Of a stretch of 64,000 nt of DNA, positions 6,198 through 60,460 are shown in pieces. Source of the DNA: Zetaproteobacteria bacterium. GTDB taxonomy: Bacteria > Pseudomonadota > Zetaproteobacteria > Mariprofundales > Mariprofundaceae. The notes below the pieces were generated by a model, which saw only the letters and a list, made by a program, of their open reading frames with translations, was not told the origin of the DNA and made no database searches. Every line of letters starts with the position of its first letter. Within the stretch, counting starts at the first letter, position 1. The stretch is taken from positions 493 through 64,492 of the forward strand of contig PEAA01000005.1 of the NCBI GenBank assembly GCA_002753275.1, read 5' to 3'. A program made the translations under genes and the position numbers.

Positions 6198-6203
6198 TAT
6201 CGC

Positions 6204-7250
6204 ATGAGACAAGGCTGTTTTGTCATTCATTGGAAAATTTGTCTTGTTTTGTTGGTCGCATCACTACTGGCTGCTTGTAGTGATGCGGAACGACCTGATC
6301 TTTGGAGTAAATATAAGCAACGCTTTTTGCAGCAAGATGGATCCATTGTCGATATTTCAAATGGAAGCATCCGACATTCGGAAGGGCAGGGAACAGGATT
6401 GCTCCTTGCCGTCGCCAACAATGATAAAGAATCGTTCGATCTCATTTGGAAATGGACGCAATCTAATTTACAACTACAGAGTGATAACAAACTCTTTGCT
6501 TGGAAATGGCAACCTCAATCGCCACATGTTTCTGATCTGAATAACGCCACGGATGGTGATATTTTAATTGCATGGGCGCTGCTACGCGCGTCCGAAAAGT
6601 GGAATCTTCCTACTTATAAGCAACAAGCCTTGATGATTCTTAATGATATTGAACGCTTGTTGGTTTACTCCTATCAAGGGAACTTGTTGCTGCTTCCAGG
6701 TCAGTATGGTTTTAAACATGAAGATGGCATTGTTATCAATCTTTCCTATTGGATTTTTCCTGCATTGAGACATTTTTCTAAAATCCAACCCAATAAACCC
6801 ATTTGGAACGATTTGATTCAAAGCGGTCAACAATTGATGGAAGATGGACATTTTGGTCCATGGAATATGCCAGCTGATTGGTTGATGGTGGGAGAGCATT
6901 TGATGTTGAGGAAGAATGTCCCACAACATTTTGGTTTAGATGCAGTGAGAATCCCTCTTTATCTTATTTGGGGCGGCTATTCATCACATATCGCTGTCAA
7001 ACGGGTCTCTCATTTTTGGGATTCGTTTACTGGCGTTGGTGCTTTCCCTGATTGGTTATCTCTTGAAGATACAGTTGTGCATATGGCGGGTTCGGCGGAA
7101 GGTGTTATTGCAATTGCTCATTTTGCACATGCAATGACTCAAAATGAATCAACATACACAACTCTTGATATCAATTGGCAGGAAATTGAGTATTATCAGG
7201 CCTCATTGGCACTATTGAGCGCTTTAGCTTGGGAGGATGTTCATCCATGA
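6204..7250 (+). CDS. bcsZ: Endo-1,4-beta-glucanase, glycoside hydrolase family 8 (BcsZ), predicted lipoprotein
   Basis: ATDGDILIAWALLRASEKW matches the GH8 signature A-[ST]-D-[AG]-D-x2-[IM]-A-x-[SA]-... The catalytic-Glu context SEGQGTG is present. There is a lipobox LLAAC after a hydrophobic leader. It sits between bcsB and bcsC. Confidence 0.9.
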   Translation: MRQGCFVIHWKICLVLLVASLLAACSDAERPDLWSKYKQRFLQQDGSIVDISNGSIRHSEGQGTGLLLAVANNDKESFDLIWKWTQSNLQLQSDNKLFAWKWQPQSPHVSDLNNATDGDILIAWALLRASEKWNLPTYKQQALMILNDIERLLVYSYQGNLLLLPGQYGFKHEDGIVINLSYWIFPALRHFSKIQPNKPIWNDLIQSGQQLMEDGHFGPWNMPADWLMVGEHLMLRKNVPQHFGLDAVRIPLYLIWGGYSSHIAVKRVSHFWDSFTGVGAFPDWLSLEDTVVHMAGSAEGVIAIAHFAHAMTQNESTYTTLDINWQEIEYYQASLALLSALAWEDVHP

Positions 7251-10018
7251 ATATCAGTAAAATCAAAACGATACCACTTCTTATGGTCGCTATTTTTTCA
7301 TTTGTAATTCAGCCGTCGATGCTGATTGCAGCGACATTTACAATATCAGATCGAGAACCAATTGAGTTTGCGAACGCTGATCTTACCGTGACTCATAAGA
7401 AGCGTGATTCTGTGAATAAAGTTGTTCGTAAAAAACAGCGCGAAATGGATGTGATGCGGAAAAATGAACTTGAGTCTTCGATGAAAATTGAAGGTGCTGC
7501 TAAAGGTCCTGCCGTCGTTGAGTCATCAGGCCAGGTCGTCAATGATGAAACAACTGTTACCCAAGTGGAAGATAATAGCGTTGAACAGATTATGGTCGGT
7601 GGTGTGCATGTCAGTGTTACCCGCCGTAAACCTGCCCCAAGTTTAGAAGAGCGACTTTGGAAGATGTACTCTGAAGGTAAGCTGACAGAGATTGAGCAGA
7701 CTATTGCCGCACAGCAGTCAAAAGATGTTAAATGGTCTCCTCCTAAAGAGCTTATTGGTTTGCTGGTTTTGCTTCGAGCGGATAAAAAGCTGCTTGCAGC
7801 ACAAGAGAAGGGCGATTATCAACTCGCCTTGGATATGTATAGTAAAAACCCAGCATCTTTTGGATGTGATCGTATTGGTTGGGCTTTTTTCTTGGCCGAA
7901 GCGCAGGTTCGTGCAAAACAGCCACAACTTGCACTTGGAACTTACCAACGCTTGTTAAAAACTTGTAACGATGATGCAAAAATGGCTTCACTTGAGCATA
8001 GTCAAGGTATTATTACCTCTGATAAGTGGCAACCGATGGTTTTAGGTCAATTGGGTGGCTCTTATAAAGGTGATAACCGCGAGAGGCTTGATAAACTCTA
8101 TTATAAAGTTTTATTGCAGAAAATTCAGGAAGCTTCTGATTATAAGCGTTACAAAGAGGCGCATGAGTTGGGTCTTAAACTTCAGCCGATGGTTTATAAG
8201 TATGATGATACATTGGCGGCTGAAATTATTGGTTGGTCCTTCTTTCGTGGCAAATATTTTGAAAATGGCTTAGAGAATTTTGATTATGCATTCAAGAAAA
8301 CCCATAGTCCTGATGCATTGCGCGGTAAAGTATTCTGTTTGGGTGAAACTGGTCGTTACGATGAACTCGACGAAACAGTCGAAGAGAATAAAACCATGTT
8401 AACCAAAGAGGGTGTTGTTAAAGATGTGTTGCCGATGATGGTTGGGAATGCATTGACCAAGAAAAATCACATTCGTGCATTGGCACTTCTTGATGAATTA
8501 GAAGCGATTCGACCACTTACCATGTCTGAACTGTCGATGCGTGGCTGGGCCTATTACCACTATGAAAAATTTGATTTGGCGGCTAAGCAGTTTCAGGACC
8601 TTTATGAGTTAAAACCTGACCGTGAAGTGGCGAAGGGGTGGTATTATGCACTTACGCGTGGGGGAAATAATACTGAGATTAAGCGTTTGGTGAACGAACT
8701 GGGTGATCCTTTCCGTTCATTTGTTCATCAAGAAGAGTCCAGCCAAGGAATGGCTTCCAATGCGCTTGGTGGGGTTTCTACCGATGTGCTTGCCAGTGTT
8801 GAGGAGCCTTTTGTTCGTTATGCATTTTTAACGAAGTTGCATAATGGGCAAGGTGCACCAACGATGTTTTCACGCATGGTATTAAGAAAACACATGCTTG
8901 AAGGCAATACTTCGGAAGGAAACCATGAATTCAACATTAAGTATGAACGGGTAACTATTGATGCTGGTAATGGTTTCATTGCTATTGATCCATTTCTTAA
9001 TCCTGTCCCTGCTGGGGTTGCACCAGGATTTACTGTAGGTACGATGCAGACAGTTCCTGGTCAGTTAAATTATGCTATTCCTAATATTCAAACTAAATAT
9101 TATGGCACAGAATGGTCGATAGGTTATGGATACCATGGAGATGGAACCTTGTATGGTGAATTGGGGCAAGTATTGATTCCATCGGCAATTAATGATGAAT
9201 GGAAGTGGCGTGTGGGTTATGCACGGGCATTTGATAAAGATTCTTGGCAATTTGAATTTTATCGTCAGCCACTGCGAGATACATTGATCTCATATATGGG
9301 TACGACCGATCCTTATTTGGGTATTCAAAAGTGGGGGCAAGTCCAGAGAAAGGGCATAAGTGTTGCTTATACGCGTAGCATGTCTCACAAAATGACTTTT
9401 GGTGGTAATTTTGCTACTGAGATGCGTACGGGACATAATGTAAGTGCTAATCGTAATATGGCGGCTTATGCGAGTTTGACCCGTGATATTAGTCCGCGTG
9501 GTTTCTCCTATTTTGCGGTTGGCCCTTATGGTCGTTGGCAGCAGGCGAAGATGAATCAGAATCATTACACCGTCGGTCATGGTAACTACTATAGCCCACA
9601 ACGACTGTTGGATTGGGGATTAGCCTCTTCATTTATGACGGATACCGGTAAAACATGGTTAATGCAAGCGGATGTTTCTTTGGGTAAACAGAGTGTTTGG
9701 GAAGGTTCTTCTCCTCTTTTTCCAACGGGTCTTCCACCTGTAGCTGGTATTCCAACAATTTACCCATCTTCAGCGAATCATGAGTATCATTTCTCATTCC
9801 AGGTGGCCGGTGTTTATGCCTTGACGGAACGGTGGCGTATCAGCGCTGAATATAAAAACTCGCGCGTGAAGTCTACATCTAAGGATCCGGCTAAGGCAGC
9901 ATTGGTTCCGATGCAAGAACACGCTTTTATGTTTAGTGCGACTTATCACTTTGATGATCGTGGTGAGTTCTTAACCCGTGGTGATTTCCCAGCGTTTAGA
10001 CTTAATCCGCTCTATTAG
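7247..10018 (+). CDS. bcsC: Cellulose synthase operon protein C (BcsC), TPR-like periplasmic region plus C-terminal outer-membrane beta-barrel
   Basis: The ATG at 7247 forms an ATGA overlap with the bcsZ stop and follows GGGAGGA by ~10 nt. The tracked ORF starts at a TTG at 7229. It has a signal peptide (LLMVAIFSFVIQPSMLIAA), a helical-repeat middle region, and an aromatic/Gly-rich C-terminal half ending in ...FRLNPLY. At ~923 aa it is shorter than E. coli BcsC. Confidence 0.8.
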   Translation: MNISKIKTIPLLMVAIFSFVIQPSMLIAATFTISDREPIEFANADLTVTHKKRDSVNKVVRKKQREMDVMRKNELESSMKIEGAAKGPAVVESSGQVVNDETTVTQVEDNSVEQIMVGGVHVSVTRRKPAPSLEERLWKMYSEGKLTEIEQTIAAQQSKDVKWSPPKELIGLLVLLRADKKLLAAQEKGDYQLALDMYSKNPASFGCDRIGWAFFLAEAQVRAKQPQLALGTYQRLLKTCNDDAKMASLEHSQGIITSDKWQPMVLGQLGGSYKGDNRERLDKLYYKVLLQKIQEASDYKRYKEAHELGLKLQPMVYKYDDTLAAEIIGWSFFRGKYFENGLENFDYAFKKTHSPDALRGKVFCLGETGRYDELDETVEENKTMLTKEGVVKDVLPMMVGNALTKKNHIRALALLDELEAIRPLTMSELSMRGWAYYHYEKFDLAAKQFQDLYELKPDREVAKGWYYALTRGGNNTEIKRLVNELGDPFRSFVHQEESSQGMASNALGGVSTDVLASVEEPFVRYAFLTKLHNGQGAPTMFSRMVLRKHMLEGNTSEGNHEFNIKYERVTIDAGNGFIAIDPFLNPVPAGVAPGFTVGTMQTVPGQLNYAIPNIQTKYYGTEWSIGYGYHGDGTLYGELGQVLIPSAINDEWKWRVGYARAFDKDSWQFEFYRQPLRDTLISYMGTTDPYLGIQKWGQVQRKGISVAYTRSMSHKMTFGGNFATEMRTGHNVSANRNMAAYASLTRDISPRGFSYFAVGPYGRWQQAKMNQNHYTVGHGNYYSPQRLLDWGLASSFMTDTGKTWLMQADVSLGKQSVWEGSSPLFPTGLPPVAGIPTIYPSSANHEYHFSFQVAGVYALTERWRISAEYKNSRVKSTSKDPAKAALVPMQEHAFMFSATYHFDDRGEFLTRGDFPAFRLNPLY

Positions 10019-12249: not shown

Positions 12250-14643
12250 TCAGTTAGCTAGAACGGCGTTGTTTCGTCCTCCGTTTTTTGCTTGATACAT
12301 GGCGTGGTCTGCATTCTTTGACAGTTCTGTAAAAGTGGCTCCATGGTTGGGGTAGATGGAAATTCCAATGCTGGCTGAAATATTGATGGACTCTGATTTT
12401 ATGTAAAAAGGAGATTGTAATTCTAGTAAAATTTTCTTGGCGACATTGATAGCTACAGAGGCATGATCAATGTTGGGAATAATGACAACAAACTCATCTC
12501 CTCCAATACGCCCTACAGTATCATATTGTCGTAAACAGTGTTTCATGCGCCCAGCAGTTTCGATAAGCACCATATCTCCAACAGCGTGTCCAAATTGATC
12601 ATTAACAGGTTTGAAATGGTCGAGATCAATGAACAATAAAGCAAAAGTTAACCCGGTTCTTGTGCTTCGGGAGATCTCTTTTTCTACTGTTGATGTGAAA
12701 AGAATCCGATTGGGTAGTCCTGTGAGCGAGTCATGCATCGCCAAGTGACGAATATAGTTGTCGCTTTTCTTACGCTCTGAAATATCGCGGGTTGAACCTA
12801 CAACTTCGACCTTGTTGGTTTCAATATTGCGTTGAAAATGTAAAATGATCTCCACCCAAACAGTTTGTCCATTTTTACAGTTTTGCTCAATTTCGTAAGT
12901 AAAATGTTTTTCCGATGAGAATTCATGGTTTAGAAAGCCCTTTAAATTGCGTTCAATTTCTTGAAGTAAAGATTTATAGCTTTCTGTTGTCATGGTCATG
13001 ATTAATGGTTGCGTGATAATTTCTTCGGTTGTGAACCCCGACAAAGAGATGACTGATGGGCTAATATAGGTATATTGTTCTGATTCTAAATCAACAATCC
13101 ATACCACATCCTTCATGGTTTCAGTCAATGTTTGATGGAGATTTTGGCTGTTTCTTAGGTTGGTTTCAGCAATTTTTCGTCGAGTGATATCATAGACAGT
13201 TCCAATGATGACCGGTTCTTGCTGATAGGTGCTCTTATTGGCAGTAATTTCAACCCAGATAATGTTACCATTTTTGTGAATGAGTCGGATCTCTTCATTG
13301 ATTTTTGCAGTGCTGTTTTGATGTAGTTCATTCATTTTGTTCACAATCAATTGATGATCTGCGAGATGGACAAGGTTGAAGATATTCTTGTTGAGTAGTT
13401 CTGTTGAAGCATAACCTGTTAAACTTTGTCCTGCTACATTGATTGAGATGAGCGTAGTGTCTTTTAAAATGAAAATACTTGCGGATGTATTATTGGCAAG
13501 TTGTTTGAAGTTTTCTTCACTTTCTGCAAGTGAGGTTTTTGTTTTTTCAAGGGTTAGAAAGCTATGGCGTAACCGTTTGTTAATGGATAAAATATAAATG
13601 ACGATGGCGGTAAGAATACCAATGATTAACATAGTAATAATGAGCATTTTATAAAATTTACTACGGTTCTCTAAAGTTCTGGATATGTCATAAATGAAGC
13701 CATTTAAATTGGGTGTCTCTTTTAAAATACCAATCTCTTGATAAACCTTGGCAATATGATTCCAACGGTCAGGGTGCATGTAACCAATTTCAACCATTTT
13801 AGATTGAATGAGTTTATCTTGCGCTTTTGCTTCAAATTGTAGCCGTTCGATGGTTTGATGATGATTGTATTTATTGATGATTAAATTGATCATTTCATTG
13901 GGGTGTTCTTCAGCATAACGCCATCCGCGCAAACTGGCTTCTCGGAATGCAGCAACACGCTTGGGATGATACTTCAACTCATCTTCACTGGTGAAGAGGT
14001 TATCGCCATAAAAGTCAATGCCAACGGATCGAGGTGAAAATACTTGATAAGTGAACCCTTTTTGCTGCAGTGTATAGGGTTCATTTGTAGAGTAGGCTTC
14101 ATAAAAATCTGTTTTATTTTCAATTAAATCATCAGGATTTGCTGAATAGGGTAAGATGTTAATATCCTGCGTACTTATCCCTTCACGCAGCAGATAGGCT
14201 AGTAATTCTGCGGCATGGGGTTCGATCATGACGCGTTTGTTGACGATATCATGAATGCTTCCATCACCATTTTTATCTGCAGTCAGAAAAACATAGGGTG
14301 AGTGTTGATGAATTGCAGCAAGGACAACAACAGGTTTTCCAGCGATGCGATCCAACACCAGTGATGAAGAGCCAGTTGCATATTGAACCTTTCCACTGAC
14401 GACATCACGCACGATGTTTGAACTTGCTAAGGATTCTAAAATAGTAACATCGAGCCCCACTTCTTTGTAAAACCCCATCTCCTTCGCTGCATAGTATCCA
14501 GCGAATTGGTATGCATGGGTCCATTTGAGTTGTAATTTTATCGGTTCAAGATTTTCAGCATGGGTTAAAGTTGTCATGCATAAGATGGTGCATAACAGTC
14601 CCATGAGGTGATTCCATAAAGGATAAAATCTCATTTTGATCAT
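12250..14643 (-). CDS. Sensor diguanylate cyclase: periplasmic NMT1/SsuA-like solute-binding domain, TM, two PAS domains, GGDEF
   Basis: It has a signal/TM segment, then LKWTHAYQFAGYYAAKEMGFYKEVGLDV (an SBP-like sensor domain), a TM helix (MLIITMLIIGILTAIVIYIL), PAS-like segments and GGDEF (RIGGDEFVV). An RxxD I-site (RQYD) lies 5 residues upstream of GGDEF. Confidence 0.85.
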   Translation of the reverse strand: MIKMRFYPLWNHLMGLLCTILCMTTLTHAENLEPIKLQLKWTHAYQFAGYYAAKEMGFYKEVGLDVTILESLASSNIVRDVVSGKVQYATGSSSLVLDRIAGKPVVVLAAIHQHSPYVFLTADKNGDGSIHDIVNKRVMIEPHAAELLAYLLREGISTQDINILPYSANPDDLIENKTDFYEAYSTNEPYTLQQKGFTYQVFSPRSVGIDFYGDNLFTSEDELKYHPKRVAAFREASLRGWRYAEEHPNEMINLIINKYNHHQTIERLQFEAKAQDKLIQSKMVEIGYMHPDRWNHIAKVYQEIGILKETPNLNGFIYDISRTLENRSKFYKMLIITMLIIGILTAIVIYILSINKRLRHSFLTLEKTKTSLAESEENFKQLANNTSASIFILKDTTLISINVAGQSLTGYASTELLNKNIFNLVHLADHQLIVNKMNELHQNSTAKINEEIRLIHKNGNIIWVEITANKSTYQQEPVIIGTVYDITRRKIAETNLRNSQNLHQTLTETMKDVVWIVDLESEQYTYISPSVISLSGFTTEEIITQPLIMTMTTESYKSLLQEIERNLKGFLNHEFSSEKHFTYEIEQNCKNGQTVWVEIILHFQRNIETNKVEVVGSTRDISERKKSDNYIRHLAMHDSLTGLPNRILFTSTVEKEISRSTRTGLTFALLFIDLDHFKPVNDQFGHAVGDMVLIETAGRMKHCLRQYDTVGRIGGDEFVVIIPNIDHASVAINVAKKILLELQSPFYIKSESINISASIGISIYPNHGATFTELSKNADHAMYQAKNGGRNNAVLAN

Positions 14644-14906: not shown

Positions 14907-14995
14907 TGGTGCCGAGGGCCGGAGTCGAACCGGCACGGAGATCACTCTCCGAGGGATTTTAAGTCCCTTGTGTCTACCTGTTTCACCACCCCGGC
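14907..14995 (-). tRNA. tRNA-Leu (anticodon TAA), long variable arm, CCA encoded
   Basis: The reverse complement reads GCCGGGGTGGTGAAACAGGTAGACACAAGGGACTTAAAATCCC...GCCGGTTCGACTCCGGCCCTCGGCACCA. The acceptor stem pairs 7/7 with one G-U. The T-loop is TTCGACT and the anticodon loop is CTTAAAA. Confidence 0.9.
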
Positions 14996-15022
14996 GGATG
15001 GGATTGATTTTTTGATGAAGTT

Positions 15023-15097
15023 TGGAGGCAGGGGCGAGAATCGAACTCGCGAATAAAGGATTTGCAGTCCTCCGCCGTACCACTGAGCCACCCTGCC
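15023..15097 (-). tRNA. tRNA-Cys (anticodon GCA)
   Basis: The reverse complement reads GGCAGGGTGGCTCAGTGGTACGGCGGAGGACTGCAAATCCTTTATTCGCGAGTTCGATTCTCGCCCCTGCCTCCA. It folds as a cloverleaf with anticodon loop CTGCAAA. Confidence 0.9.
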
Positions 15098-15151
15098 ATG
15101 AACTTCTCATAAAATAAAAGAGGGGAATCAAATGATCCCCCTCCGAGTGCT

Positions 15152-15227
15152 TGGAGCGGGTAACCGGGCTCGAACCGGTGACCTCGACCTTGGCAAGGTC
15201 GCGCTCTACCAACTGAGCTATACCCGC
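15152..15227 (-). tRNA. tRNA-Gly (anticodon GCC)
   Basis: The reverse complement reads GCGGGTATAGCTCAGTTGGTAGAGCGCGACCTTGCCAAGGTCGAGGTCACCGGTTCGAGCCCGGTTACCCGCTCCA. The anticodon loop is TTGCCAA. Confidence 0.92.
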
Positions 15228-47132: not shown

Positions 47133-48500
47133 ATGGGAATAGAAGAGCATCGTAAAATTTATGTGCTTGATACCAATGTGTTGATTCATGATCCCAATGC
47201 ATTGCAGCGTTTTGATGAGCATGATGTGGTGTTGCCCATCATTGTTCTTGAAGAGATGGATAAAGTCAAACGCGGGCAGGATGAATTGGCGCGAAATGTG
47301 CGTGATGCTTCCCGACAACTGGATCAATTAAGTGCCGATACCGAGGATCTAGCCCAAGGATGTCCGCTTCCTGGTGGTGGGCGGCTCTTTTTTCAAGTCA
47401 ATGAAGCCGATTTAAAAACATTACCCACGGGGATGATGCAGGCGAGTGCGGACAATCAGATCATTGCTGTTACCAAAGCGTTACAAAATGAGAATCCTGA
47501 TCGTCATGTGATTTTAGTCTCCAAAGATATCAATTTGCGTATCAAAGCGAGAGCGCTTGATTTGGTTTCCGAAGATTACCGTTCCGATCGGGTGGTTGAT
47601 GACCTCGATGTCTTGTCAGTTGGTTATCAGGCTCTGAGTGAGTCAGAGTGGACAGCCATGGGTGATGGTATGCAGGTGACAGAAGGGGGGCTTGGTCATA
47701 GCTATTCAGTGCGCTGGCCTGAAACAAAAGAGATTCCAGCATTAAATAGTTTTGTCATTCTTCCTGGTGGGAAAGAGCAGGCACTTCGTTGCATGAAGGT
47801 TGAAGAGGGGCGCCGTGTTTTTCTCCATGAGCCTTATTCTTACCGTAGCGAAAGGCATGCCGTTTGGAGTGTTGTCGCGCGAAATTTAGAGCAAAATATG
47901 GCGATGAATTTGTTGATGGATCCAAATTTGGATTTGGTTTCGATTATGGGATTGGCGGGTTCAGGTAAAACATTGCTTGCTTTGGCATGTGGGCTACAAC
48001 AAACCCTCGAAGCGGGGATTTATGAGCGCATTTTAGTGACCCGTGCAACAGTTCCTATGGGCGGTCAAGATATTGGTTTTTTACCAGGGACAGAAAAAGA
48101 GAAGCTTGAACCTTGGATGGGGGCCATTACCGACAACTTGTCCCTTCTTTTGGGCGATGATGCTAGAGATTTATCATCAGCATTGGGTCAGCACCGCATC
48201 GAGATTGCGGCGTTGTCTTATTCGCGTGGGCGAACATTTACCAACACTTGGTTGATTGTTGATGAGGCGCAAAATTTAACACCACATCAGATGAAAACGC
48301 TGATTACGCGGATGGGAGAGGGTTCCAAAATGATCATTTTGGGTAATAATGGTCAGATTGATACCCCATACTTAACAGCGCATACCAATGGAATGACGCT
48401 GGCCATAGAACGCTTTACCAATTGGCCTTTTTCAGGGCATGTGGTGCTTGAAAACAGCGAGCGCTCTCGCCTTGCTGCCTATGCAACGCAGGTTTTGTAA
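47133..48500 (+). CDS. PhoH2: N-terminal PIN nuclease domain fused to PhoH-like ATPase
   Basis: The PIN motif is YVLDTNVLIHDP. The Walker A motif is GLAGSGKTLLAL and the Walker B motif is LIVDEAQNL. Confidence 0.85.
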   Translation: MGIEEHRKIYVLDTNVLIHDPNALQRFDEHDVVLPIIVLEEMDKVKRGQDELARNVRDASRQLDQLSADTEDLAQGCPLPGGGRLFFQVNEADLKTLPTGMMQASADNQIIAVTKALQNENPDRHVILVSKDINLRIKARALDLVSEDYRSDRVVDDLDVLSVGYQALSESEWTAMGDGMQVTEGGLGHSYSVRWPETKEIPALNSFVILPGGKEQALRCMKVEEGRRVFLHEPYSYRSERHAVWSVVARNLEQNMAMNLLMDPNLDLVSIMGLAGSGKTLLALACGLQQTLEAGIYERILVTRATVPMGGQDIGFLPGTEKEKLEPWMGAITDNLSLLLGDDARDLSSALGQHRIEIAALSYSRGRTFTNTWLIVDEAQNLTPHQMKTLITRMGEGSKMIILGNNGQIDTPYLTAHTNGMTLAIERFTNWPFSGHVVLENSERSRLAAYATQVL

Positions 48501-48540
48501 TCGAGGTTATTTAGATAAATAGTCATAATATGGAGTATTA

Positions 48541-49299
48541 ATGGGACAAATTTTTCATGAAACGCGATTTTGGCACTATTGCCCAAATCCACTTTATGTG
48601 GGCTTGGGTGTAGGGCTTTTTTTACCTTGGGCGTTAATTTTACAACTTAATTACCATCTGCAAACGGCAGCATTGATGATTTTTGTAATCGCGATGGCGT
48701 TGATTGTATTGGGAGGATTGGGTTGGGCTGCGCAAACCATGGCAAAAAATAATGCCAATGCTCATGGTCATACGATGCCTATGTCACTTTTTGTTCTATT
48801 TGATCTGTTTGTTGTCCTAGGGCTATGGCTAGGTTTTGATATTGCCCATGTCGCTGTTTCACCTTGGCCTCCTGTGGAGAGCCCATTGGACCTTTTGCAA
48901 GTACCTGTGCAATGGATCGTTTTAATGTTGTTGTCGAGTAGTGCGATGTTTGCATCGCAAAAGTTTTTTATTGCCCAGCAGCATATGCGTGTTTTTTTAG
49001 CACTGTGTGTTGGACTGATCGCTTTAGGGACTATTTTTTACGCAATGATGACGCTTTTGAATGATTTGAACTCTGTTGGCTTTACGATGGTGAGTCATTC
49101 ATTTTCTGCAGCTGTATTTGCATTTGTTGGACTCTATCTTGTGCATCTTGTTATTGCGATGTTGATGTTGCTGACTCCTTTACAAGTGATTTTAAAAGGG
49201 CAAATACGAGGTGTTACTTTGGGGGCAATCGCAATCTATATTCATTTTGTTATGCTGCTTGGTATAGCTCTGGTCGTGATGATGTTTGGGTGGGCTTAG
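48541..49299 (+). CDS. Heme-copper oxidase subunit III-like membrane protein (divergent)
   Basis: It has ~7 TM helices. The C-terminal half aligns by eye to Cox3: PWPPVE vs VWPPEG, FVGLYLVHLVIAML vs ATGFHGAHVIIGTI, and LKGQ conserved. Confidence 0.62.
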   Translation: MGQIFHETRFWHYCPNPLYVGLGVGLFLPWALILQLNYHLQTAALMIFVIAMALIVLGGLGWAAQTMAKNNANAHGHTMPMSLFVLFDLFVVLGLWLGFDIAHVAVSPWPPVESPLDLLQVPVQWIVLMLLSSSAMFASQKFFIAQQHMRVFLALCVGLIALGTIFYAMMTLLNDLNSVGFTMVSHSFSAAVFAFVGLYLVHLVIAMLMLLTPLQVILKGQIRGVTLGAIAIYIHFVMLLGIALVVMMFGWA

Positions 49300-49406
49300 T
49301 TTCGACCTCATCTAGAGTCGATGAGGTGTTGGAAAGAATAGAAATGAGTAGGTTGAATTGAAGAGATATTTTTTTGATCGCTATTGCACAGTTGGGAGAG
49401 AAATGA

Positions 49407-51017
49407 ATGGGTAGTTTTATGGGGCATGAGCCTGGCGGGTATGAACATTGGCCAAAGCTTTTTTCAGAGTGGCTTTTTTCAATGGATCATAAAGTGATTG
49501 CTGTCGGATACCTTTTGGGTTCGATTATAGCGTTGTTGCTATCAATTTTTACTGCATTGAAAATTGATACGGGTTGGGAGATTGCAGGGATGTCGATTGC
49601 CGATGTGGTCTTTCATATCGCTTTGAGTATGCAGGGTAGTGTGTTGTTGTTTGGTTTCATGATACCAGCACTGTTTGGTTTTTTTGCCAGTTGGGTGTTG
49701 CCTATTATGGTTGGTGCAAAATCGATTGCATTTCCGCGCTTGCATGCATGTGGGTTATGGATGTTTTTCTCAGGGTTGATTTTGGCTATAGCCAATCTAT
49801 TTATTCCCGATCCATTTTATGGTTTTGGTGCATCATCAATTGCTTATGCGTTTTCAGAACATAGTAATAATGTGATGCTCTATTTCTGTATGGTTGCTGT
49901 GTGGAGTTTGTCGGCAGTTTTTTTAGTCATCAATCTGATTGCGACAACGGTTTCAATGCGTGCAACAGGAGTTCAGTGGATGCAATTGAACATGTTTGTT
50001 TGGAGTATTGTACTCGCTGGCTTTTTGTTATTGCTATTCATGGCCATGAACTTCGCTTCGATGTTGATGTTGGCATTGAACCCTTTTGTTGGGAAAGCAT
50101 TTTATTTTATTCAGAATACAGGTGAGGTGTTTATTGATCAAACACTCATTTGGGCCTATAGCCATCTTTTGCCAATGTTGTTGCTGCTGCCAGTGTTGGG
50201 ATTATGCCTTGATATTTTTGCGACATTCACTAAACAAATGCCATTGGGTTATCCCGTTTTGGTTGGAGTGATGTCATTATTCATCCCTGCATCCATTCTC
50301 TCGGTGGTGTTTCATGGTTATGTTGTGACATCGATTTCGCAAAGCCTTCTTGTCATGGCAACAGGATTGCAAATTTTTCCGGCAGTCGTTGTGCTATTTT
50401 CATTGATTTGGATGGTGATGCGTGGATGGAATCGAACGGCATGGAGCGGAGCGATGTTCGCAGCACTGAGTGTGTGGATGTTGTTGTGTTTCGCATTGGT
50501 CTTGCAATCTGTTGAATATATGACAGCCCTGCCTTTAGGCGCACATGTGCTACTGTTGATCATTTTGGCTGTGATTCAGTCAATTTTTGCAGCGCTGTTT
50601 TATTTCTTGCCAAAATTGAGTGGTCGTGTTGGTAATCGTTGGATGATGCATGCATCATCGCTACTTTTTTTCGTTGCAGCCTTGATGATGAGTGTGCCTA
50701 CTATTTTGCTTCATCAAGGTGTTGAAAATACCACGGCCAATCCATTTGCAATAATTGCTATGTATCTATTGATTGCCGCAGTTATTTTATCGGTTCTCAC
50801 TGTATTGCATACATTATTGGCAGGTGAAAAGGTGACAGAGGATAACTTATGGGGGTCGCAATCATTGGAATGGTCTCAGACAGCCGTAATTCCAGGGCAA
50901 GGAAACTTCCCTAACCCTCTTATTGTTCCAAGTGATTGGACGCCATATGGCTATGAGCAGAATGGCGTGATCCAATTTGATTTAGAGGCGCGTGTTGCCT
51001 CATATAAAAATAAATAG
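49407..51017 (+). CDS. Heme-copper oxidase subunit I-like protein with incomplete metal-ligand set
   Basis: Collinear matches to A-type subunit I are FSMDHKVIAVGYLL, LPIMVGAKSIAFPRL, MFVWSIV, IWAYSHLLPMLLLLP, FLPKLSG and SLEWS. H70, H253, H303 and H380 are retained. Positions equivalent to bovine H291, H378, E242 and Y244 read G, L, L and M. Confidence 0.78.
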   Translation: MGSFMGHEPGGYEHWPKLFSEWLFSMDHKVIAVGYLLGSIIALLLSIFTALKIDTGWEIAGMSIADVVFHIALSMQGSVLLFGFMIPALFGFFASWVLPIMVGAKSIAFPRLHACGLWMFFSGLILAIANLFIPDPFYGFGASSIAYAFSEHSNNVMLYFCMVAVWSLSAVFLVINLIATTVSMRATGVQWMQLNMFVWSIVLAGFLLLLFMAMNFASMLMLALNPFVGKAFYFIQNTGEVFIDQTLIWAYSHLLPMLLLLPVLGLCLDIFATFTKQMPLGYPVLVGVMSLFIPASILSVVFHGYVVTSISQSLLVMATGLQIFPAVVVLFSLIWMVMRGWNRTAWSGAMFAALSVWMLLCFALVLQSVEYMTALPLGAHVLLLIILAVIQSIFAALFYFLPKLSGRVGNRWMMHASSLLFFVAALMMSVPTILLHQGVENTTANPFAIIAMYLLIAAVILSVLTVLHTLLAGEKVTEDNLWGSQSLEWSQTAVIPGQGNFPNPLIVPSDWTPYGYEQNGVIQFDLEARVASYKNK

Positions 51018-51036
51018 AAAAAGCGAGAGTTTATAG

Positions 51037-51522
51037 ATGCATCTATTTTTACTGTTTGTGGGGCTTGTTCTATGTTCAACACAACCTCTGGAGGCTGCGG
51101 AGTTAGAAATATCATTGGCGACCGTGCGCATGCCCCCTCCCCAAAGTGATACGGCTGCCGCTTATATGCAGATTAAAAATATATCCAATAAGCCGGTGGT
51201 GATCTCTTCGATTGTCTCAAATGTTGCGAAGGTCACGGAGCTGCATTCGATGCGTATGGAAGGGGACCGAATGATCATGAGTGAAGTGAAAAAAACACGC
51301 ATTGAAGTGGGCGCAACGCTCGATTTATCGCCCAGTGCGATGCATTTAATGTTGATGGATTTATATGAGGATTTGCGGGCTGGAGATCAGGTGATGATTA
51401 CTTTTTACTTGCAGTCGGGCAAAGAGGAGATGGTTCATGCGTTGGTTCAAGATATGCGTAATAAGTCCATCGACCATGATGCCATGGATATGACACCAAT
51501 GAAGATGCATCACGCCCATTGA
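51037..51522 (+). CDS. Periplasmic copper chaperone PCu(A)C (DUF461 family)
   Basis: It has a signal peptide. The Cu(I) motif pattern H-x-M...M...H-x-M is present (ELHSMRMEGDRMIM...SAMHLMLM). The His/Met-rich C-terminal tail is DHDAMDMTPMKMHHAH. Confidence 0.8.
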   Translation: MHLFLLFVGLVLCSTQPLEAAELEISLATVRMPPPQSDTAAAYMQIKNISNKPVVISSIVSNVAKVTELHSMRMEGDRMIMSEVKKTRIEVGATLDLSPSAMHLMLMDLYEDLRAGDQVMITFYLQSGKEEMVHALVQDMRNKSIDHDAMDMTPMKMHHAH

Positions 51523-55304: not shown

Positions 55305-55424
55305 TTAGCCGATATACTCATCATCTTTGTGTTTGTTAATTTTGTAACGCTTGGTTGCAAAATAACCCGCCCACCAGCTAAAAAGGGCAAAGGGTAGTAA
55401 AATTAACAGTAGCTTCCAATCCAT
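55305..55424 (-). CDS. Candidate small membrane protein (39 aa) translationally coupled to rnfE
   Basis: It is not in the ORF track because it is under 60 aa. The minus-strand ATG at 55424-55422 shares one nt with the rnfE TAA (TAATG). The product is MDWKLLLILLPFALFSWWAGYFATKRYKINKHKDDEYIG, one TM helix plus a charged tail. Confidence 0.4.
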   Translation of the reverse strand: MDWKLLLILLPFALFSWWAGYFATKRYKINKHKDDEYIG

Positions 55425-56104
55425 TACAGGGTGACCTCACGAGGGTGTTGCCGTTGCTCTTTTTTTGCAGCCTCTAAACCTTGATTGATTTTATTGACGA
55501 TGGCAAGAATGAATCCGAGTGCAATGAATGCGCCAGGCGGTAAAATGAACATTAACATATTGGGGTAGTCCGCCCCGAAAACTACTGTTCCAAAAATCAT
55601 CCCTTGACCCAACAGTTCACGAACGGTGCCAAGAATAACCAGTGCGAGAGTGAAGCCACTTCCCATGGCCAAGGCATCGAGCAGTGAATCGGCCGCGCTA
55701 TTTTTGCTGGCAAAGGCCTCTGCACGACCAAGAATTGTACAGTTGACCACAATCAATGGAATGAATAGACCCAGCACTTGATGCATTCCATGCATCCATG
55801 CATTCATGGCCAGGTCAACAATGGTGACAAATGCGGCAATAATGGTGATGTATACGGGAATGCGAACTTGCTTGGGCACAATATGGCGAATGGATGAGAC
55901 CACGCCATTGGATGCGATCAACACCAAAAGGGTGGCAAGCCCCATCCATAAGCCATTTTCGGCAGAGGTTGTGACGCCCAGAAGAGGGCACATGCCCAAA
56001 AGTTGTGCAAAGATCGCATTGTTAAACCATAGCCCATCCAGGATGATGCGTTGTTGCGCTGAAGGTTCTTTTGCGATGGGCGCGGATAGCGTTGCTTCAT
56101 TCAT
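55424..56104 (-). CDS. rnfE: Rnf electron-transport complex subunit E
   Basis: It has the RnfE/NqrD-like sequence NNAIFAQLLGMCPLLGVTTS. It overlaps rnfG by 8 nt. Confidence 0.93.
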   Translation of the reverse strand: MNEATLSAPIAKEPSAQQRIILDGLWFNNAIFAQLLGMCPLLGVTTSAENGLWMGLATLLVLIASNGVVSSIRHIVPKQVRIPVYITIIAAFVTIVDLAMNAWMHGMHQVLGLFIPLIVVNCTILGRAEAFASKNSAADSLLDALAMGSGFTLALVILGTVRELLGQGMIFGTVVFGADYPNMLMFILPPGAFIALGFILAIVNKINQGLEAAKKEQRQHPREVTL

Positions 56105-56744
56105 GGTTCTCCTCCTTATTCAATGTTGAGGCGGCTTTAAAAATTTGTTGGCGTGATTGAGAAAACCATAACAGTTCTTGGTGGAGAGTCTTGATCACTG
56201 CGCGCGGAGTGATGGTGGCTCCTGTAAACTGATCAAAGTCACCGCCATCTTTTTTTACACCCCAAACAATGGTGTTGAGTGTTTGCCCATTAAAATGATC
56301 AATCCAAGGTTGGTTTTTGGTAATGCCATCACCAAGGCCAGGCGTCTCTTTATGATCGGTAATGCGCATAGCATGCATGCGACCCTCGCTGTTGACGCCC
56401 ATGAGAATATAGATGGAGCCTGCATAACCATCGTTGGCAATAGTCTCCCAAGCAAAGCCAACAATGTTTCCATTGGCATCACGGGCACTATAGAGCAGAT
56501 GGTGTTCGTCTTTGAGTGTTGGGGTTGCAATGGTGAGCGTCTCATCGAGAGGCTGATTGGTATAGGGAGGGAGCACTTCTGTCAGTGCCGAATGTAGTGC
56601 TGTGCGTTTGGCTTGGGCAATGGGTTCGTGGGTAAAGATATCGGTTAATGCCAGCAGAAAGGTGGTGAGGAGCCCCACAATAAAAAGTGCCATGACCATT
56701 TGCCACTGTTCGCGATCAATATTCATCCATGGGCGTTGACTCAT
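56097..56744 (-). CDS. rnfG: Rnf complex subunit G (FMN-binding)
   Basis: It has an N-terminal TM helix and the FMN attachment context ATITPRAV in FTGATITPRAVIK. Confidence 0.88.
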   Translation of the reverse strand: MSQRPWMNIDREQWQMVMALFIVGLLTTFLLALTDIFTHEPIAQAKRTALHSALTEVLPPYTNQPLDETLTIATPTLKDEHHLLYSARDANGNIVGFAWETIANDGYAGSIYILMGVNSEGRMHAMRITDHKETPGLGDGITKNQPWIDHFNGQTLNTIVWGVKKDGGDFDQFTGATITPRAVIKTLHQELLWFSQSRQQIFKAASTLNKEENHE

Positions 56745-57793
56745 GATGCAGCTCTTCCATAAACACGCGGGCGTGTGTAGTGATCAATCAGGGGGACTGC
56801 GCAGTTCATAAGCATGACGGCAAACATCGCCCCTTCGGGGTAACCACCAAAGTTACGGATACTCCACGTGATCAGGCCGCAACCGATACCAAAGATGAGC
56901 TGACCCTTGTGGGTGACAGGGGAGGAGACGGGATCCGTTGCCATGAAAAAAGCACAGAGCATTAAACCTCCCGCCATTAAGTGAAAAAGCGGGGGGGCAA
57001 ATTGATTGGGAGCAATGAGGGAGGATATGAGCGATAATAGGGCGACTGTGATCAAAAATGAGCAGGGGATTTGCCAACGAATCACCCCTTTGCCGAGTAG
57101 AAAAAGACCGCCAAGTAGCAGGGCGAGCGCGCTGCTTTCGCCAATACTTCCGCCTTCATTGCCAATGAAGGCATCGAGCCAATGATAAGGGTAATGGGCA
57201 AGTGCATCGGGCACGGAGATGCCTTGGCTTAGTGCCGTTTTAACATGGCCTAAAGGTGTCGCCATGGTGATGGCATCAAGGGAGGTGTTGAGTGATTGCA
57301 CTCCGAAAAAGAAGAGTTGGCTTGCGATAGAAAAATCATAGAGATTCAAGAGGTGATCAACGCTCATCGGTGTGATCCATGAAGTCATCTGAAGGGGGAA
57401 TGAGATGAGTAGAATAACCCGTGCAGAGAGTGCGGGGTTAAAGGGGTTGTAGCCCAATCCACCGTAGATCTGTTTGCTCAGGATAATGGCAAACATCGCT
57501 GCTAAAATGGTCATCCACCATGGGGTGAGTGCAGGGAGTGTTAAGGCAATCAATAAGCCCGTCAGTGCTGCAGACCCATCAAACATAGGCGCAATTGGTC
57601 GTTTCATTAAGCGCAGACATCCCCATTCACTTACCAGTGCCGCTCCCATGCAACTTACAATGATTAAAAAGGATAACCAACCAAAGAGATAGACGCTAAA
57701 GAGGGTTGCGGGAATGAGCGAAAGGATGACGCTAAACATCACCTTGCGAATGCTGTTTCCTCCATGAATATGGGGAGAGCTGAGTAAAATCAT
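56741..57793 (-). CDS. rnfD: Rnf complex subunit D
   Basis: It is a polytopic membrane protein. It begins SSPHIH and carries the FMN-site context ATDPVSSP. It has ATGA overlaps on both sides. Confidence 0.93.
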   Translation of the reverse strand: MILLSSPHIHGGNSIRKVMFSVILSLIPATLFSVYLFGWLSFLIIVSCMGAALVSEWGCLRLMKRPIAPMFDGSAALTGLLIALTLPALTPWWMTILAAMFAIILSKQIYGGLGYNPFNPALSARVILLISFPLQMTSWITPMSVDHLLNLYDFSIASQLFFFGVQSLNTSLDAITMATPLGHVKTALSQGISVPDALAHYPYHWLDAFIGNEGGSIGESSALALLLGGLFLLGKGVIRWQIPCSFLITVALLSLISSLIAPNQFAPPLFHLMAGGLMLCAFFMATDPVSSPVTHKGQLIFGIGCGLITWSIRNFGGYPEGAMFAVMLMNCAVPLIDHYTRPRVYGRAAS

Positions 57794-59301
57794 GACTGAC
57801 CTTCAGTGGGTTGCGTCGGTGGTGTGACGGGGGCGGTTGCTGCGCGCGCCTGTTTGCGTTTGGCGGCGGCGGCCTCTTTCGCCTCTTTTTCGCGCTGTAT
57901 GCGCGCTTCTTTGGCACTTGAGCGCTGGCGAGATTCATCGGCAAACGCTTTCTCTCGTTTGATGGTTGCAAGCTGCCCTTTGCCGTAACGGAAGTAGTGC
58001 ACTAAGGGGATGTGTGATGGACAGACATAACTACAACAGCCACACTCAATACAGTCAAAGAGATGGTAGTCGGCAACTTTTTCGAATTGATCTTGACGGC
58101 ATAGATCGGCCAGAAGATTGGGGGTTAAACTGGCCGGACAGACTTGGCTACAGTCACCACAACGAATGCAAGGGGACTCCTCTTTGTGTGCGGCCATCAT
58201 CGTTTGTGGAAGGAAGGCTAAAACGGCATTGGTGGCTTTAACCACTGGTGCATGCGCATGCCCTAAACGCTCGCCCATCATGGGGCCACCATGGATCAGA
58301 TGGCAACCATCCATGTTTTCTAAGCCATGCCAAGCTAGAAGTTGGTCGATTGGCGTGCCAAGGCGGACACGCATATTCCCAGGATTGGGCATGGCATCGC
58401 CACTTACGGTCACGACCCGCTCAATCAGTGGTTTCCCCCATAAGATCGCATCGTGAATGGCTTTGGTGGTGCCAACATTTTGGCAGATCAGACCGATGTG
58501 TAACGGAAGCTTTCCTGCAGGAACCTGTTTTTTGGTGAGAAATTCAATCAGCTGTTTTTCACTTCCTTGTGGATAGCTACTGGGCAGGGATTTGACTTCA
58601 ATGTGGTGCAATTCTTGCGCCGTAATGATGCGTTGAAAGCATGCGATGGCATCGGGCTTATTGTCTTCAATGGCAATGATTGCGGTGTTCGCCTTGACCA
58701 TGTGCAGGATCATTTGTAAACCAAGCACAATTTCTTCACTGTGTTCAACCATTAAACGGTGATCATTGGTGAGATAGGGTTCGCATTCTGCACCATTCAG
58801 AATCACCGATTCAATGGGGTGGTTTTTATCTTGCAATAGCTTGATGAAAGTGGGGAAAACAGCGCCGCCAAGCCCCGCGATACCCGATAAGCGAACCCGT
58901 TCACGCAGTATGGAAGGTTCAAGTTGTTTCCAATCCTGGAGGGTGGCGAGGGTCGTGTCCCATTGGTCGTTACCATCAGCTTCAATAAATATTGACTCCA
59001 TCGATAGACCCGAGGGGTGGGTGATCGCATGTTCTCCGATTTTGGTGATGATCCCTGAGGTCGGTGCATGAATGGCAGCTGAGAGATATCCTTGTGATTT
59101 GGCGATTTTCTGCCCTTTGAGGACTCGATCACCAACACGCACAAGCGGTGTGCATATTTCACCAATATGTTGTTTTAAGGGTAAAATATAGTGGCTAGAG
59201 AGAGGTGCTTCAGCAATCGCTGCAGTTGCCGTGAGCTTATGTTTTTCGGGATAGATGCCGGTCACCTTGGGCTGAAAAAGAGAGCGGAGTGATTTAAGCA
59301 T
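57790..59301 (-). CDS. rnfC: Rnf complex subunit C (NADH-binding, 2x[4Fe-4S]) with K/A/E-rich C-terminal tail
   Basis: The two ferredoxin motifs are CIRCGDCSQVCP and CIECGCCSYVCP. I chose the ATG at 59301, which overlaps rnfB by 8 nt. The tracked ORF starts at a TTG at 59328. Confidence 0.92.
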   Translation of the reverse strand: MLKSLRSLFQPKVTGIYPEKHKLTATAAIAEAPLSSHYILPLKQHIGEICTPLVRVGDRVLKGQKIAKSQGYLSAAIHAPTSGIITKIGEHAITHPSGLSMESIFIEADGNDQWDTTLATLQDWKQLEPSILRERVRLSGIAGLGGAVFPTFIKLLQDKNHPIESVILNGAECEPYLTNDHRLMVEHSEEIVLGLQMILHMVKANTAIIAIEDNKPDAIACFQRIITAQELHHIEVKSLPSSYPQGSEKQLIEFLTKKQVPAGKLPLHIGLICQNVGTTKAIHDAILWGKPLIERVVTVSGDAMPNPGNMRVRLGTPIDQLLAWHGLENMDGCHLIHGGPMMGERLGHAHAPVVKATNAVLAFLPQTMMAAHKEESPCIRCGDCSQVCPASLTPNLLADLCRQDQFEKVADYHLFDCIECGCCSYVCPSHIPLVHYFRYGKGQLATIKREKAFADESRQRSSAKEARIQREKEAKEAAAAKRKQARAATAPVTPPTQPTEGQS

Positions 59302-59875
59302 GATGTTGTTCCTTGCGTTCGTGCCCAAGTTCTGCGCGGTTGCTGCCAGGAAGTGGCCATGCCCAATGTTCGAGTAATTCAGGTTTGATTAACATATCAA
59401 TACAATCGACAGGACAAGGCTCAAGGCATAGCGTGCAACCCGTGCAATCCTTGGCGATAATGGTGTGATATTGTTTGGGTGCGCCAACAATGGCATCAAC
59501 AGGACACGATTTAATACAGAGTGTGCAGCCAATGCACTCATCTTCACGAATGAATGCGACCATCGGTGCGGTTGGACCCTCTTCGATCTCTTTGGGTTCA
59601 ACCCCCATTAAATCGGCAATGGCAAGCATGGTGCGTTCTCCGCCTGGGATGCAGTGATTGACCTCAGCGCGCTCCTCAGCCACTGCCGTGGCGTAGGGTT
59701 TACAACCAGGGAATCCACATTGTCCGCATTGTGTTTGCGGCAAGAGGGCGTCAATTTTTTCAACGATAGGATCGCCTTCAACCTTGAAAAAACGGGTGGC
59801 AATGGCCAAAAGTATGCCCGAAATGAGTGCAAATAGACTAAAAGAGAGCATTGCTGTAAAGAGGTTTTGCATCAT
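59294..59875 (-). CDS. rnfB: Rnf complex subunit B (polyferredoxin)
   Basis: It has an N-terminal TM helix, CGQCGFPGCKPYA, and two 4Fe-4S motifs (CIGCTLCIKSCP and CTGCTLCLEPCP). Confidence 0.92.
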   Translation of the reverse strand: MMQNLFTAMLSFSLFALISGILLAIATRFFKVEGDPIVEKIDALLPQTQCGQCGFPGCKPYATAVAEERAEVNHCIPGGERTMLAIADLMGVEPKEIEEGPTAPMVAFIREDECIGCTLCIKSCPVDAIVGAPKQYHTIIAKDCTGCTLCLEPCPVDCIDMLIKPELLEHWAWPLPGSNRAELGHERKEQHHA

Positions 59876-59878
59876 GCG

Positions 59879-60460
59879 TTAAAACTTCACCAAGCCAGAA
59901 AAACCCATGAATGCGAGGGACATCATGCCTGCGGTAATCAAGGTCAAGGGGGAGCCTTTGAATGCTTTGGGTGTGGGTGCGCCATCAAGCCGTTCGCGCA
60001 GCCCAGCAAAAAGAATCAACACAAGTCCAAATCCGATTGCAGCACCAAGCCCATAAAATGCCGAGGTGAAAAGGCCATGGTCATGCTGGATATTTAATAA
60101 AGCAACGCCAAGAACCGCACAGTTGGTGGTGATTAAAGGCAAGAAAATCCCCAATCCTTGGTAAAGAACAGGGCTGGTTTTATGAATCATCATCTCAATA
60201 AATTGCACAAGCACTGCAATGATAAGAATGAAAAAGATCGTTTGTAGATAGAGAATATCAAGCGGAATTAAAATATATTGCTGCACAAGCCATGAGGCTG
60301 TTGAGGCAAGGGTCATGACAAACATCACCGCAAAAGACATGCCGATCGCCGTTTCAACCTTGCCCGAGACCCCAAGAAAGGGACATATTCCAAGGAATTT
60401 GGCGAGCACATAGTTGTTGACTAAAATGGTGGATAATAAAATAACGGCAAATTCGTACAT
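59879..60460 (-). CDS. rnfA: Rnf complex subunit A
   Basis: [32 protein letters not shown] matches the RnfA/NqrE N-terminal consensus. Confidence 0.95.

Follow-up and report, generated by a model that had tools for sequence, protein, structure and literature searches.

A cytochrome oxidase subunit I homologue without its low-spin haem ligands in a zetaproteobacterial genome, apparently still under selection

A three-gene cluster next to PIN-PhoH2

We have analysed a stretch of 64 kb from a Zetaproteobacteria bacterium (GenBank assembly GCA_002753275.1, contig PEAA01000005.1, positions 493 to 64,492), henceforth called the window, to which all coordinates below refer. Three consecutive open reading frames (ORFs) on its plus strand encode a divergent homologue of cytochrome oxidase subunit III (Cox3-like), a homologue of subunit I in which three of the six canonical histidine ligands are missing (Cox1-like), and a periplasmic copper chaperone of the PCu(A)C type (PCuAC). 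An earlier inspection of the letters and their translations (the sequence-only reading) had placed the three ORFs at these positions, 40 nt behind the end of a PIN-PhoH2 gene, and this layout stands. In the public record, the products of the cluster are named “hypothetical protein HQM07_03100”, “cbb3-type cytochrome c oxidase subunit I” and “copper chaperone PCu(A)C” (MBF0281540-42, from a Zetaproteobacteria metagenome-assembled genome (MAG)). The name given to MBF0281541.1 is wrong twice: the protein is derived from the A-type, not the cbb3-type, and its catalytic ligands are gone.

The cox3-like gene (48541..49299) specifies 252 amino acids with about seven predicted helices. It is separated by a spacer of 40 nt (48501..48540), with a GGAG located 8 nt ahead of the cox3-like ATG, from the PIN-PhoH2 gene (47133..48500, plus strand; Pfam PIN_4 and PhoH matches), which lies outside the oxidase relic and serves as a synteny anchor. 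Downstream follows a gap of 107 nt (49300..49406) at the position that cox2 occupies in every intact relative; it shows no similarity to COX2, even at E<=10. The gap includes an 8-bp hairpin (49305-49327), although shuffled sequence folds at least as well, and, ahead of the cox1-like ATG, a GGGAGAG ribosome-binding site. The cox1-like gene (49407..51017) codes for an A2-type-derived subunit I of 536 amino acids with 12 transmembrane helices, whose cytoplasmic C-terminal tail (residues 480-536; 50844..51014) carries the Zetaproteobacteria-specific motif SQTAVIPGQGNFP..PLIVP..WTPYGY. The PCuAC gene (51037..51522; 161 amino acids) starts 19 nt after cox1-like, and dapF on the opposite strand converges with the cluster. 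A promoter scan returned no sigma-70-like promoter in the 40-nt spacer; promoter-like sites were rarer than in shuffled sequence, and no convincing terminator was found between the genes. An Rfam scan of the window gave three tRNAs only, all outside the cluster.

The Cox1-like protein is a true A-type subunit I homologue of the haem-copper oxidase (HCO) superfamily. It matches PF00115 over profile positions 2-399 (E=9e-31; 107.6 bits, with a cut-off of 34.8), and its best sequence matches amongst solved structures are A-type subunits I, those of Rhodobacter sphaeroides (E=3.5e-35) and Paracoccus denitrificans (E=4.1e-32). An AlphaFold2 (AF2) model (pLDDT 70, pTM 0.78) consists of twelve long helices and, in Foldseek, superposes on chain A of 2gsm, 1ar1 and 1occ with TM scores of 0.75-0.78. 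The protein nevertheless falls far under every NCBIfam equivalog cut-off, scoring 157 bits against the CtaD/CoxA equivalog TIGR02891, for which the cut-off is 670.75. The profile match and the predicted fold agree with the collinearity with A-type subunit I that had been proposed by eye, and the profile alignment and structure prediction together confirmed the homology, and the alignments described below confirmed and extended the ligand losses.

For the Cox3-like protein, there is no direct Pfam match. It is, however, 35-37% identical (E=2e-46) to 249-amino-acid Cox3 proteins of Zetaproteobacteria that bear PF00510, and it matches subunit III in the PDB with E=9e-4. The top Foldseek matches of its AF2 model (pLDDT 64) are all subunit III (e.g., 7ate_C, TM ~0.6), so that identity and fold together bear out a divergent subunit III upstream of cox1-like.

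PCuAC, by contrast with its degenerate upstream neighbours, is an ordinary member of the PCu(A)C chaperones (PF04314: E=4.7e-26; 91.2 bits, cut-off 29.4). It has an N-terminal hydrophobic leader, the intact Cu(I) motif HX10MX21HXM (residues 70-105; 51244-51351) and the His/Met-rich C-terminal tail that the sequence-only reading had described.

Catalytic residues of the Cox1-like protein

The ligand positions were read from an HMMER alignment with the R. sphaeroides (Rs) protein (1m56), from MAFFT alignments with six and with 35 A-type Cox1 sequences, and from a MAFFT alignment with 21 intact zetaproteobacterial orthologues. All of these alignments agree, and the codon coordinates of the key residues have been verified. 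Three histidines are kept: H253 and H303, which correspond to the CuB ligands Rs H284 and Rs H334, and H380, which corresponds to the proximal ligand of the high-spin haem (Rs H419). The distance from H253 to H303 is 50 residues, as it is in R. sphaeroides. Also retained is Y251-S252, the Y-S before Rs H284 that constitutes the helix VI motif replacing E286 in A2-type enzymes.

The helix II ligand of the low-spin haem, Rs H102, is a Gln (Q76; 49632-49634) and its helix X ligand, Rs H421, a Leu (L382; 50550-50552); therefore, both low-spin ligands are gone, at positions where all 21 zetaproteobacterial orthologues and all 34 other A-type Cox1 proteins have a His. The third CuB ligand, Rs H333, is replaced by Phe (F302; 50310-50312), and the cross-linked Tyr (Rs Y288), a Tyr in 21 out of 21 orthologues, by Met (M257; 50175-50177). 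E286 itself corresponds to L255. The D channel has lost its entrance, Rs D132 (S106), as well as Rs N121 (S95) and Rs N139 (H113); the conserved Rs W172 has become S144, and V329 is also counted among the lost positions. Two loops are deleted altogether, the His-Asp loop of the Mg site and the GMPRRY loop with the Arg pair that holds the haem propionates. Each of the 21 intact orthologues has all six His together with the Tyr, D132, N121 and N139; of these residues, only three His remain in the Cox1-like protein.

These assignments agree with the sequence-only reading for helix VI (CuB His kept, D-channel Glu and Tyr lost) and for helix X (first His kept, low-spin ligand changed to Leu), and they correct it for helix VII: the pair reported there as HG is F302-H303, the earlier register being off by one, so that the first His is lost and the second kept. 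Of the earlier statement that one haem ligand and one CuB ligand are missing, the CuB part survives (F302), but the haem part does not, Q76 being lost in addition to L382. No alignment recovered all six His and the Tyr.

As judged from its sequence, the protein is unable to bind a low-spin haem, for which both axial ligands are gone, and unable to build a three-His CuB site or a His-Tyr cofactor; the proton entrance of its D channel is lost as well. Together with the lack of adjacent genes for subunit II and haem A synthesis, the losses imply that it is neither an O2 reductase nor an NO reductase, and no proton pump, in line with the earlier view that it cannot work as a canonical oxidase. Amongst the features that define subunit I of the A family, the proximal His of the high-spin haem is present; the low-spin His pair, the three-His CuB site, the His-Tyr cofactor and the D-channel entrance are absent. 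By descent, the protein is an A2-type aa3 subunit I, but with nearly all defining catalytic features failing, it should not be classified as one.

There is no described HCO family that tolerates such a combination of losses (PMC11214002), as had been suggested earlier. The NOR-type families (cNOR, qNOR, eNOR, sNOR, bNOR, nNOR and gNOR) have both haems and an FeB/CuB site of three or four residues; no more than one low-spin ligand is exchanged in them, for Met or Lys, as is the case in nNOR and eNOR, and gNOR is the first HCO family in which even one active-site His is replaced, by Asp (PMC11214002). The Cox1-like protein belongs to the same superfamily and, like the NOR-type HCOs, lacks the cross-linked Tyr and the canonical proton channels. 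It does not fit amongst them, however, since neither low-spin ligand is left and a Phe stands in place of one CuB His; moreover, the NOR-type HCOs are conserved families with partner subunits, whereas the Cox1-like protein is a singleton without a partner subunit that branches from A2-type oxidases.

Descent from the zetaproteobacterial aa3 operon

The nearest relative (P0002; 36% identity) has all ligands and is encoded in a full operon, COX3-COX2-COX1-UbiA(ctaB)-SCO1. Scanning one genome per GTDB species for the shared motifs M[SG][GS]FMGHE and IPGQGNFP yielded 21 loci, all in Zetaproteobacteria/Mariprofundaceae, including Mariprofundus micogutta ET2 (L021) and Mariprofundus sp. KV (L015). 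Across 24 related loci, again all from Zetaproteobacteria or Mariprofundaceae, the gene order is cox3-cox2-cox1-ctaB-(sco1/PCuAC)-sel1-...-ctaA. In detail, the island comprises cox3-cox2-cox1-ctaB, sco1 and/or PCuAC (often fused to Sel1), sel1, a gyrI-like gene on the minus strand, a cupredoxin-like gene, a second HCO of 458 amino acids and ctaA; cox2 (262-287 amino acids) is present between cox3 and cox1, and ctaB and ctaA are part of the island, in every intact relative. In four loci (L001, L002, L004 and L005), the island is preceded by PIN-PhoH2 on the plus strand and a kinase-like AAA_33 gene on the minus strand, and the PhoH2 proteins of these loci are 69-71% identical to that of the window. 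The layout of L002 (PhoH2 82-1446; AAA_33 1471-2961, minus strand; cox3 from 3339) leaves a cox upstream region of ~380 nt.

Two features of the intact relatives deserve mention in their own right. The A2-type Cox1 proteins of Zetaproteobacteria (L001-L022, e.g., L002:4994-6682; P0002) carry a Phe at the K-channel Lys position Rs K362 (a Leu in the by-eye register) and a Phe at Rs T359, where all 34 other A-type Cox1 have Lys and Thr; lack of the K-channel lysine is by itself unusual for an A-type oxidase. The second HCO of the canonical island matches PF00115 (L002:10151-13216; also in L003-L023) and is preceded by a cupredoxin-like gene of 174 amino acids and followed by ctaA.

The window cluster has the same position beside PIN-PhoH2 and the same order of surviving genes as the zetaproteobacterial A2-type aa3 operon, and its two oxidase-derived proteins have in common with that enzyme the 12-helix fold of subunit I, the fold of subunit III, the YSH of helix VI and the lineage-specific tails, with FMGHEPGG at the N-terminus and IPGQGNFP at the C-terminus of Cox1. 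The conserved PhoH2-cox3-(cox2)-cox1-(ctaB)-PCuAC synteny therefore identifies the cluster, at the level of gene order, as a positional orthologue of this accessory operon and not as a paralogue. It differs from the operon in the loss of three His, the Tyr, the D-channel entrance, the Mg site and the Arg pair, and in lacking cox2, ctaB, sco1 and ctaA, none of which occurs anywhere in the 64-kb window, so that the absence of subunit II and haem A synthesis genes noted earlier holds over its full length. A relaxed tblastn search of the spacers (E<=10) for remnants of cox2, ctaB, sco1 and AAA_33 gave noise only.

A series of deletions would account for this arrangement. The 40 nt before cox3-like would be what remains after loss of AAA_33 and the native upstream region of the operon, the 107 nt behind cox3-like what remains after loss of cox2, and the 19 nt before PCuAC what remains after loss of ctaB and sco1; the sel1-like gene and the downstream block with ctaA and the second HCO would have been deleted too, everything past PCuAC being gone, and the ORFs left intact would be cox3-like, cox1-like and PCuAC. 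Co-transcription of the cluster with PhoH2, which the sequence-only reading had put forward, is plausible, but it does not go back to an ancestral operon, as the 40-nt spacing would have arisen by deletion of AAA_33 and the native cox upstream region. The aa3-type enzyme in Zetaproteobacteria is described as an accessory oxidase for higher O2 that is frequently absent and that occurs, in some lineages, alongside or instead of cbb3 (PMC5513912, PMC6443915).

PCuAC occupies the same operon position in L008, L014, L016 and L022, and the window protein is 33-37% identical to these; it does not appear to be accelerated, because the same-position relatives are only 32-59% identical to each other. 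Since its adjacency to cox1 was inherited from the intact operon, this adjacency is no independent evidence for copper handling by the Cox1-like protein, an option in the sequence-only reading that had rested on it. PCuAC could well be a still functional copper chaperone inherited from the operon, presumably serving other cuproenzymes such as cbb3. In several Mariprofundaceae, namely L008 (12787-13683), L016 (11519-12415) and L022 (3906-4901), the operon PCuAC is fused to a C-terminal Sel1-repeat domain (298-331 amino acids), while it is standalone in L014 and in the window.

The two oxidase-derived genes have diverged far more than the neighbouring PhoH2. Intact Cox1 proteins (n=21) are 70-98% identical to one another (median 78%), and the Cox1-like protein is 35-39% identical to all of them. 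PhoH2 serves as the calibration: a comparison of the window with L002 gives 70.7% identity for PhoH2, 39% for Cox1 and 37% for Cox3, and a comparison of L002 with L004 gives 75.2%, 86% and 83%, respectively. Placing the Cox1-like protein in a subclade of the intact orthologues by group-specific residues was uninformative: it behaves as an outgroup with affinity to no subclade.

A word-indexed search of 5.8 billion proteins, an exhaustive HMMER search of 1.84 billion cluster representatives and peptide-pattern scans of GTDB species genomes and of JGI metagenomes gave no second ligand-deficient member and nothing above 39% identity. The degenerate triad, for which a survey of genomes had been suggested, is thus a singleton in these databases. 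The closest PhoH2 match amongst the 5.8 billion proteins is only 73% identical, and therefore the organism has no sampled close relative. In the contigs of the relatives closest by PhoH2 (L025-L027; 72-73%), a cbb3 cluster follows PhoH2-AAA_33 and no aa3 island is found there. Between AAA_33 and that cluster (CcoN of 468 amino acids; FixO), these contigs have a cytochrome c gene, a conserved 168-amino-acid ORF matching PF00115, that is, a small COX1-like protein, and a thioredoxin-like gene (L025:4541-6655, L026:4535-6649, L027:4365-6461).

Selection, possible roles and other genes in the window

We have simulated neutral decay by point substitutions from an intact orthologue under the base composition of the window gene. 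On reaching 60% identity, the simulated genes had acquired 9.5 in-frame stops, and at 40% they had 14.6; none of 300 runs was stop-free. In a conservative two-phase model, decay was allowed only from the intact orthologue that is most distant (71% identity with L002) onwards; 11.6 stops accumulated, and none of 200 runs was stop-free. Selection against polarity on PCuAC was mimicked by simulations in which nonsense mutations alone were purged, and the observed protein exceeds the maxima reached by simulation: for the correlation of smoothed hydropathy (0.88 versus a two-phase nonsense-purged maximum of 0.82), the hydropathy correlation at mismatched sites (0.40 versus 0.37), the mean BLOSUM62 score at mismatches (-0.24 versus -0.34), the mean hydropathy (1.01 versus 0.73), the regional heterogeneity of retention (chi-square 55 versus 33) and the difference between cytoplasmic and periplasmic retention (0.38 versus a two-phase maximum of 0.18).

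Of the 273 positions invariant in intact Cox1 orthologues, 44% survive in the Cox1-like protein, and they survive unevenly: 77% in residues 1-40, 61% in residues 80-120, 15% (4/27) around helix X. All 17 C-terminal tail positions that are invariant in the 21 orthologues are kept, against the 44% background (p ~7e-7). When the protein is divided into halves from the model helices and the known topology, the cytoplasmic half keeps 65% of its invariant positions and the periplasmic half 27% (Fisher p=2.5e-10; p=9e-6 with the tails excluded). The Cox3-like protein retains 41 of 89 family-invariant positions, 20 of 31 in the N-terminus, TM1 and TM2 as opposed to 12 of 43 in TM3-7 (p=0.002); its cytoplasmic/periplasmic asymmetry is not significant (p=0.67).

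Apparently, then, the two proteins are not decaying neutrally, and their ORFs, their hydropathy and the cytoplasmic half of Cox1 are under selection. The pattern suggests that the half of Cox1 which held the haems, CuB, Mg and the subunit II interface was released and is now more hydrophobic, while the cytoplasmic half and the tails stayed constrained. Amongst the three options left by the sequence-only reading, a decaying paralogue came closest, although neither word fits well: the cluster is a positional orthologue, and neutral decay is contradicted by the simulations and by the regional retention. The cluster thus appears to derive from a known accessory oxidase, to be specific to this lineage and catalytically dead, and to be still under selection.

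The reading we favour, as somewhat more probable than its competitors combined, is that the cluster is the relic of an aa3 operon of an iron-oxidising zetaproteobacterium, in which a cofactor-less membrane pair of subunits I and III has been kept for a non-redox role that involves the cytoplasmic face. The cell would still produce the Cox1-like protein and insert its 12 helices into the membrane, probably as the partner of the subunit III-like protein that diverged along with it, and the Cox1-like protein would contain no haem or, at most, one residual metal. The cytoplasm-facing half and both terminal tails would be the main targets of selection, with the periplasmic half that faced the cofactors and subunit II being freed, and the pair would be a pseudo-enzyme, probably with a structural or scaffolding role. 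Scaffolding at the cytoplasmic face is suggested by the conservation pattern. An analogy is offered by CydA' (qOR4b), the cofactor-poor paralogous subunit retained in the archaeal CydAA' bd oxidase (bioRxiv 10.1101/2021.01.16.426971), which is a homologue of a catalytic subunit, minus haem ligands or substrate site, kept as a membrane partner; the Cox1-like protein may work in a similar way. It belongs to an unrelated superfamily, however, and forms a conserved clade beside an intact catalytic subunit, whereas the Cox1-like protein has no intact catalytic partner in view.

Several points weigh against a pair kept for a non-redox role. H253, H303 and H380 survive and a residual metal site is possible, yet the three out of seven residues retained equal the 44% background. 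The gene absences cover the 64 kb only, and cox2 or the haem A pathway may lie elsewhere in the genome. Conservation of the cytoplasmic loops could in part reflect constraints of membrane insertion and topology rather than a partner. Selection is deduced only from simulations, with a simple substitution model that excludes indels, and there is one sequence, with no sister lineage in protein sets, GTDB species genomes or JGI metagenomes.

Plain pseudogenisation fares best of the other explanations, though we regard it as unlikely. Both genes would be functionless, and open by chance or owing to indirect selection, either against Rho-dependent polarity on PCuAC or against toxic misfolded membrane products. 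It would fit the wholesale loss of partner and cofactor genes, the extreme divergence as compared with the neighbouring PhoH2, the singleton status in all databases searched and the accessory, frequently absent nature of aa3 in Zetaproteobacteria (PMC5513912, PMC6443915), as well as the position of PCuAC, 19 nt downstream and with no predicted promoter of its own. Chance is opposed by the neutral runs, stop-free in 0/300 and 0/200 cases, and nonsense-purging by itself does not account for the hydropathy, the conservative replacements, the uneven retention between regions or the cytoplasmic/periplasmic asymmetry. Polarity does not explain the 17 out of 17 positions kept in the C-terminal tail, and the clean deletion of cox2, ctaB and AAA_33 indicates that deletion was possible, yet the cox1-like and cox3-like ORFs were spared.

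A copper-handling membrane protein is improbable. In this proposal, H253, M257 and H303 at the former CuB site would bind Cu(I) delivered by PCuAC and act as a relay, sink or sensor. Two His with a Met are a common Cu(I) ligand set, and it is in favour of the proposal that two CuB His survive and that the cross-link Tyr has become a Met one helical turn from H253; PCuAC, with its intact motif and His/Met tail, is probably co-transcribed. Besides the inherited position of PCuAC, what speaks against it is that the redox residues are kept no better than background, that the periplasm-facing half, from which the chaperone would approach, is the least conserved (27%), and that the periplasmic loops contain no Met/His clusters. 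Equally doubtful is a variant in which the subunit I/III pair has been repurposed as a haem-less module, the cytoplasmic face and tails docking a partner while His253/Met257/His303 takes Cu(I) from the co-transcribed PCuAC, the whole acting as a copper relay or sensor.

Very unlikely, in our view, is a single-haem enzyme of new chemistry, in which H380 would hold a high-spin haem and two His would form a site for copper or iron, the low-spin haem being absent. The joint retention of H380 with H253 and H303 would suit it. This option of the sequence-only reading has been weakened by the deletion of the propionate-holding Arg pair with its loop, by the loss of the W172 equivalent and by the poor retention both in the helix X region (4/27 invariant positions) and on the cofactor side (27%). 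Without subunit II and low-spin haem, there is no electron entry route, nor is there a proton channel, and genes for haem O and haem A synthase are absent from the window. A working oxidase with subunit II and assembly genes elsewhere would be compatible with a view of no more than 64 kb, but it can practically be dismissed: the protein lacks low-spin ligands, a CuB His, the Tyr and D-channel residues at positions that do not vary amongst the 21 orthologues and 34 other A-type Cox1, and it scores 157 bits versus the 670-bit equivalog cut-off.

Subunit I is amongst the most strictly conserved membrane proteins, and its six His are treated as invariant when new members are classified. Our limited literature search turned up no account of a subunit I homologue under protein-level selection in which both low-spin ligands are missing. 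If the selection signal holds, the pair would amount to a natural “pseudo-oxidase”, revealing which constraints are independent of catalysis, namely, those on the cytoplasmic half, the tails and TM1-2 of subunit III; its value is limited by its being a single MAG-derived sequence. In practice, marker-gene surveys of Zetaproteobacteria would miscount MBF0281541.1 as a terminal oxidase and as evidence for an O2 niche.

Elsewhere in the window, a cellulose synthase operon (17-10018, plus strand) consists of a BcsA-like glycosyltransferase with PilZ (17-2074), a very long BcsB of 1378 amino acids (2061-6197), an ORF of 348 amino acids and BcsC (7229-10018), and an NMT1-PAS-GGDEF protein is encoded nearby on the minus strand (12250-14643). 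Three tandem tRNA genes lie at 14910-15227 (minus strand). An rnf-like cluster of six ORFs occupies 55424-60460 on the minus strand, in which RnfC (57790-59328) carries Complex1_51K, RnfC_N and 4Fe-4S domains.

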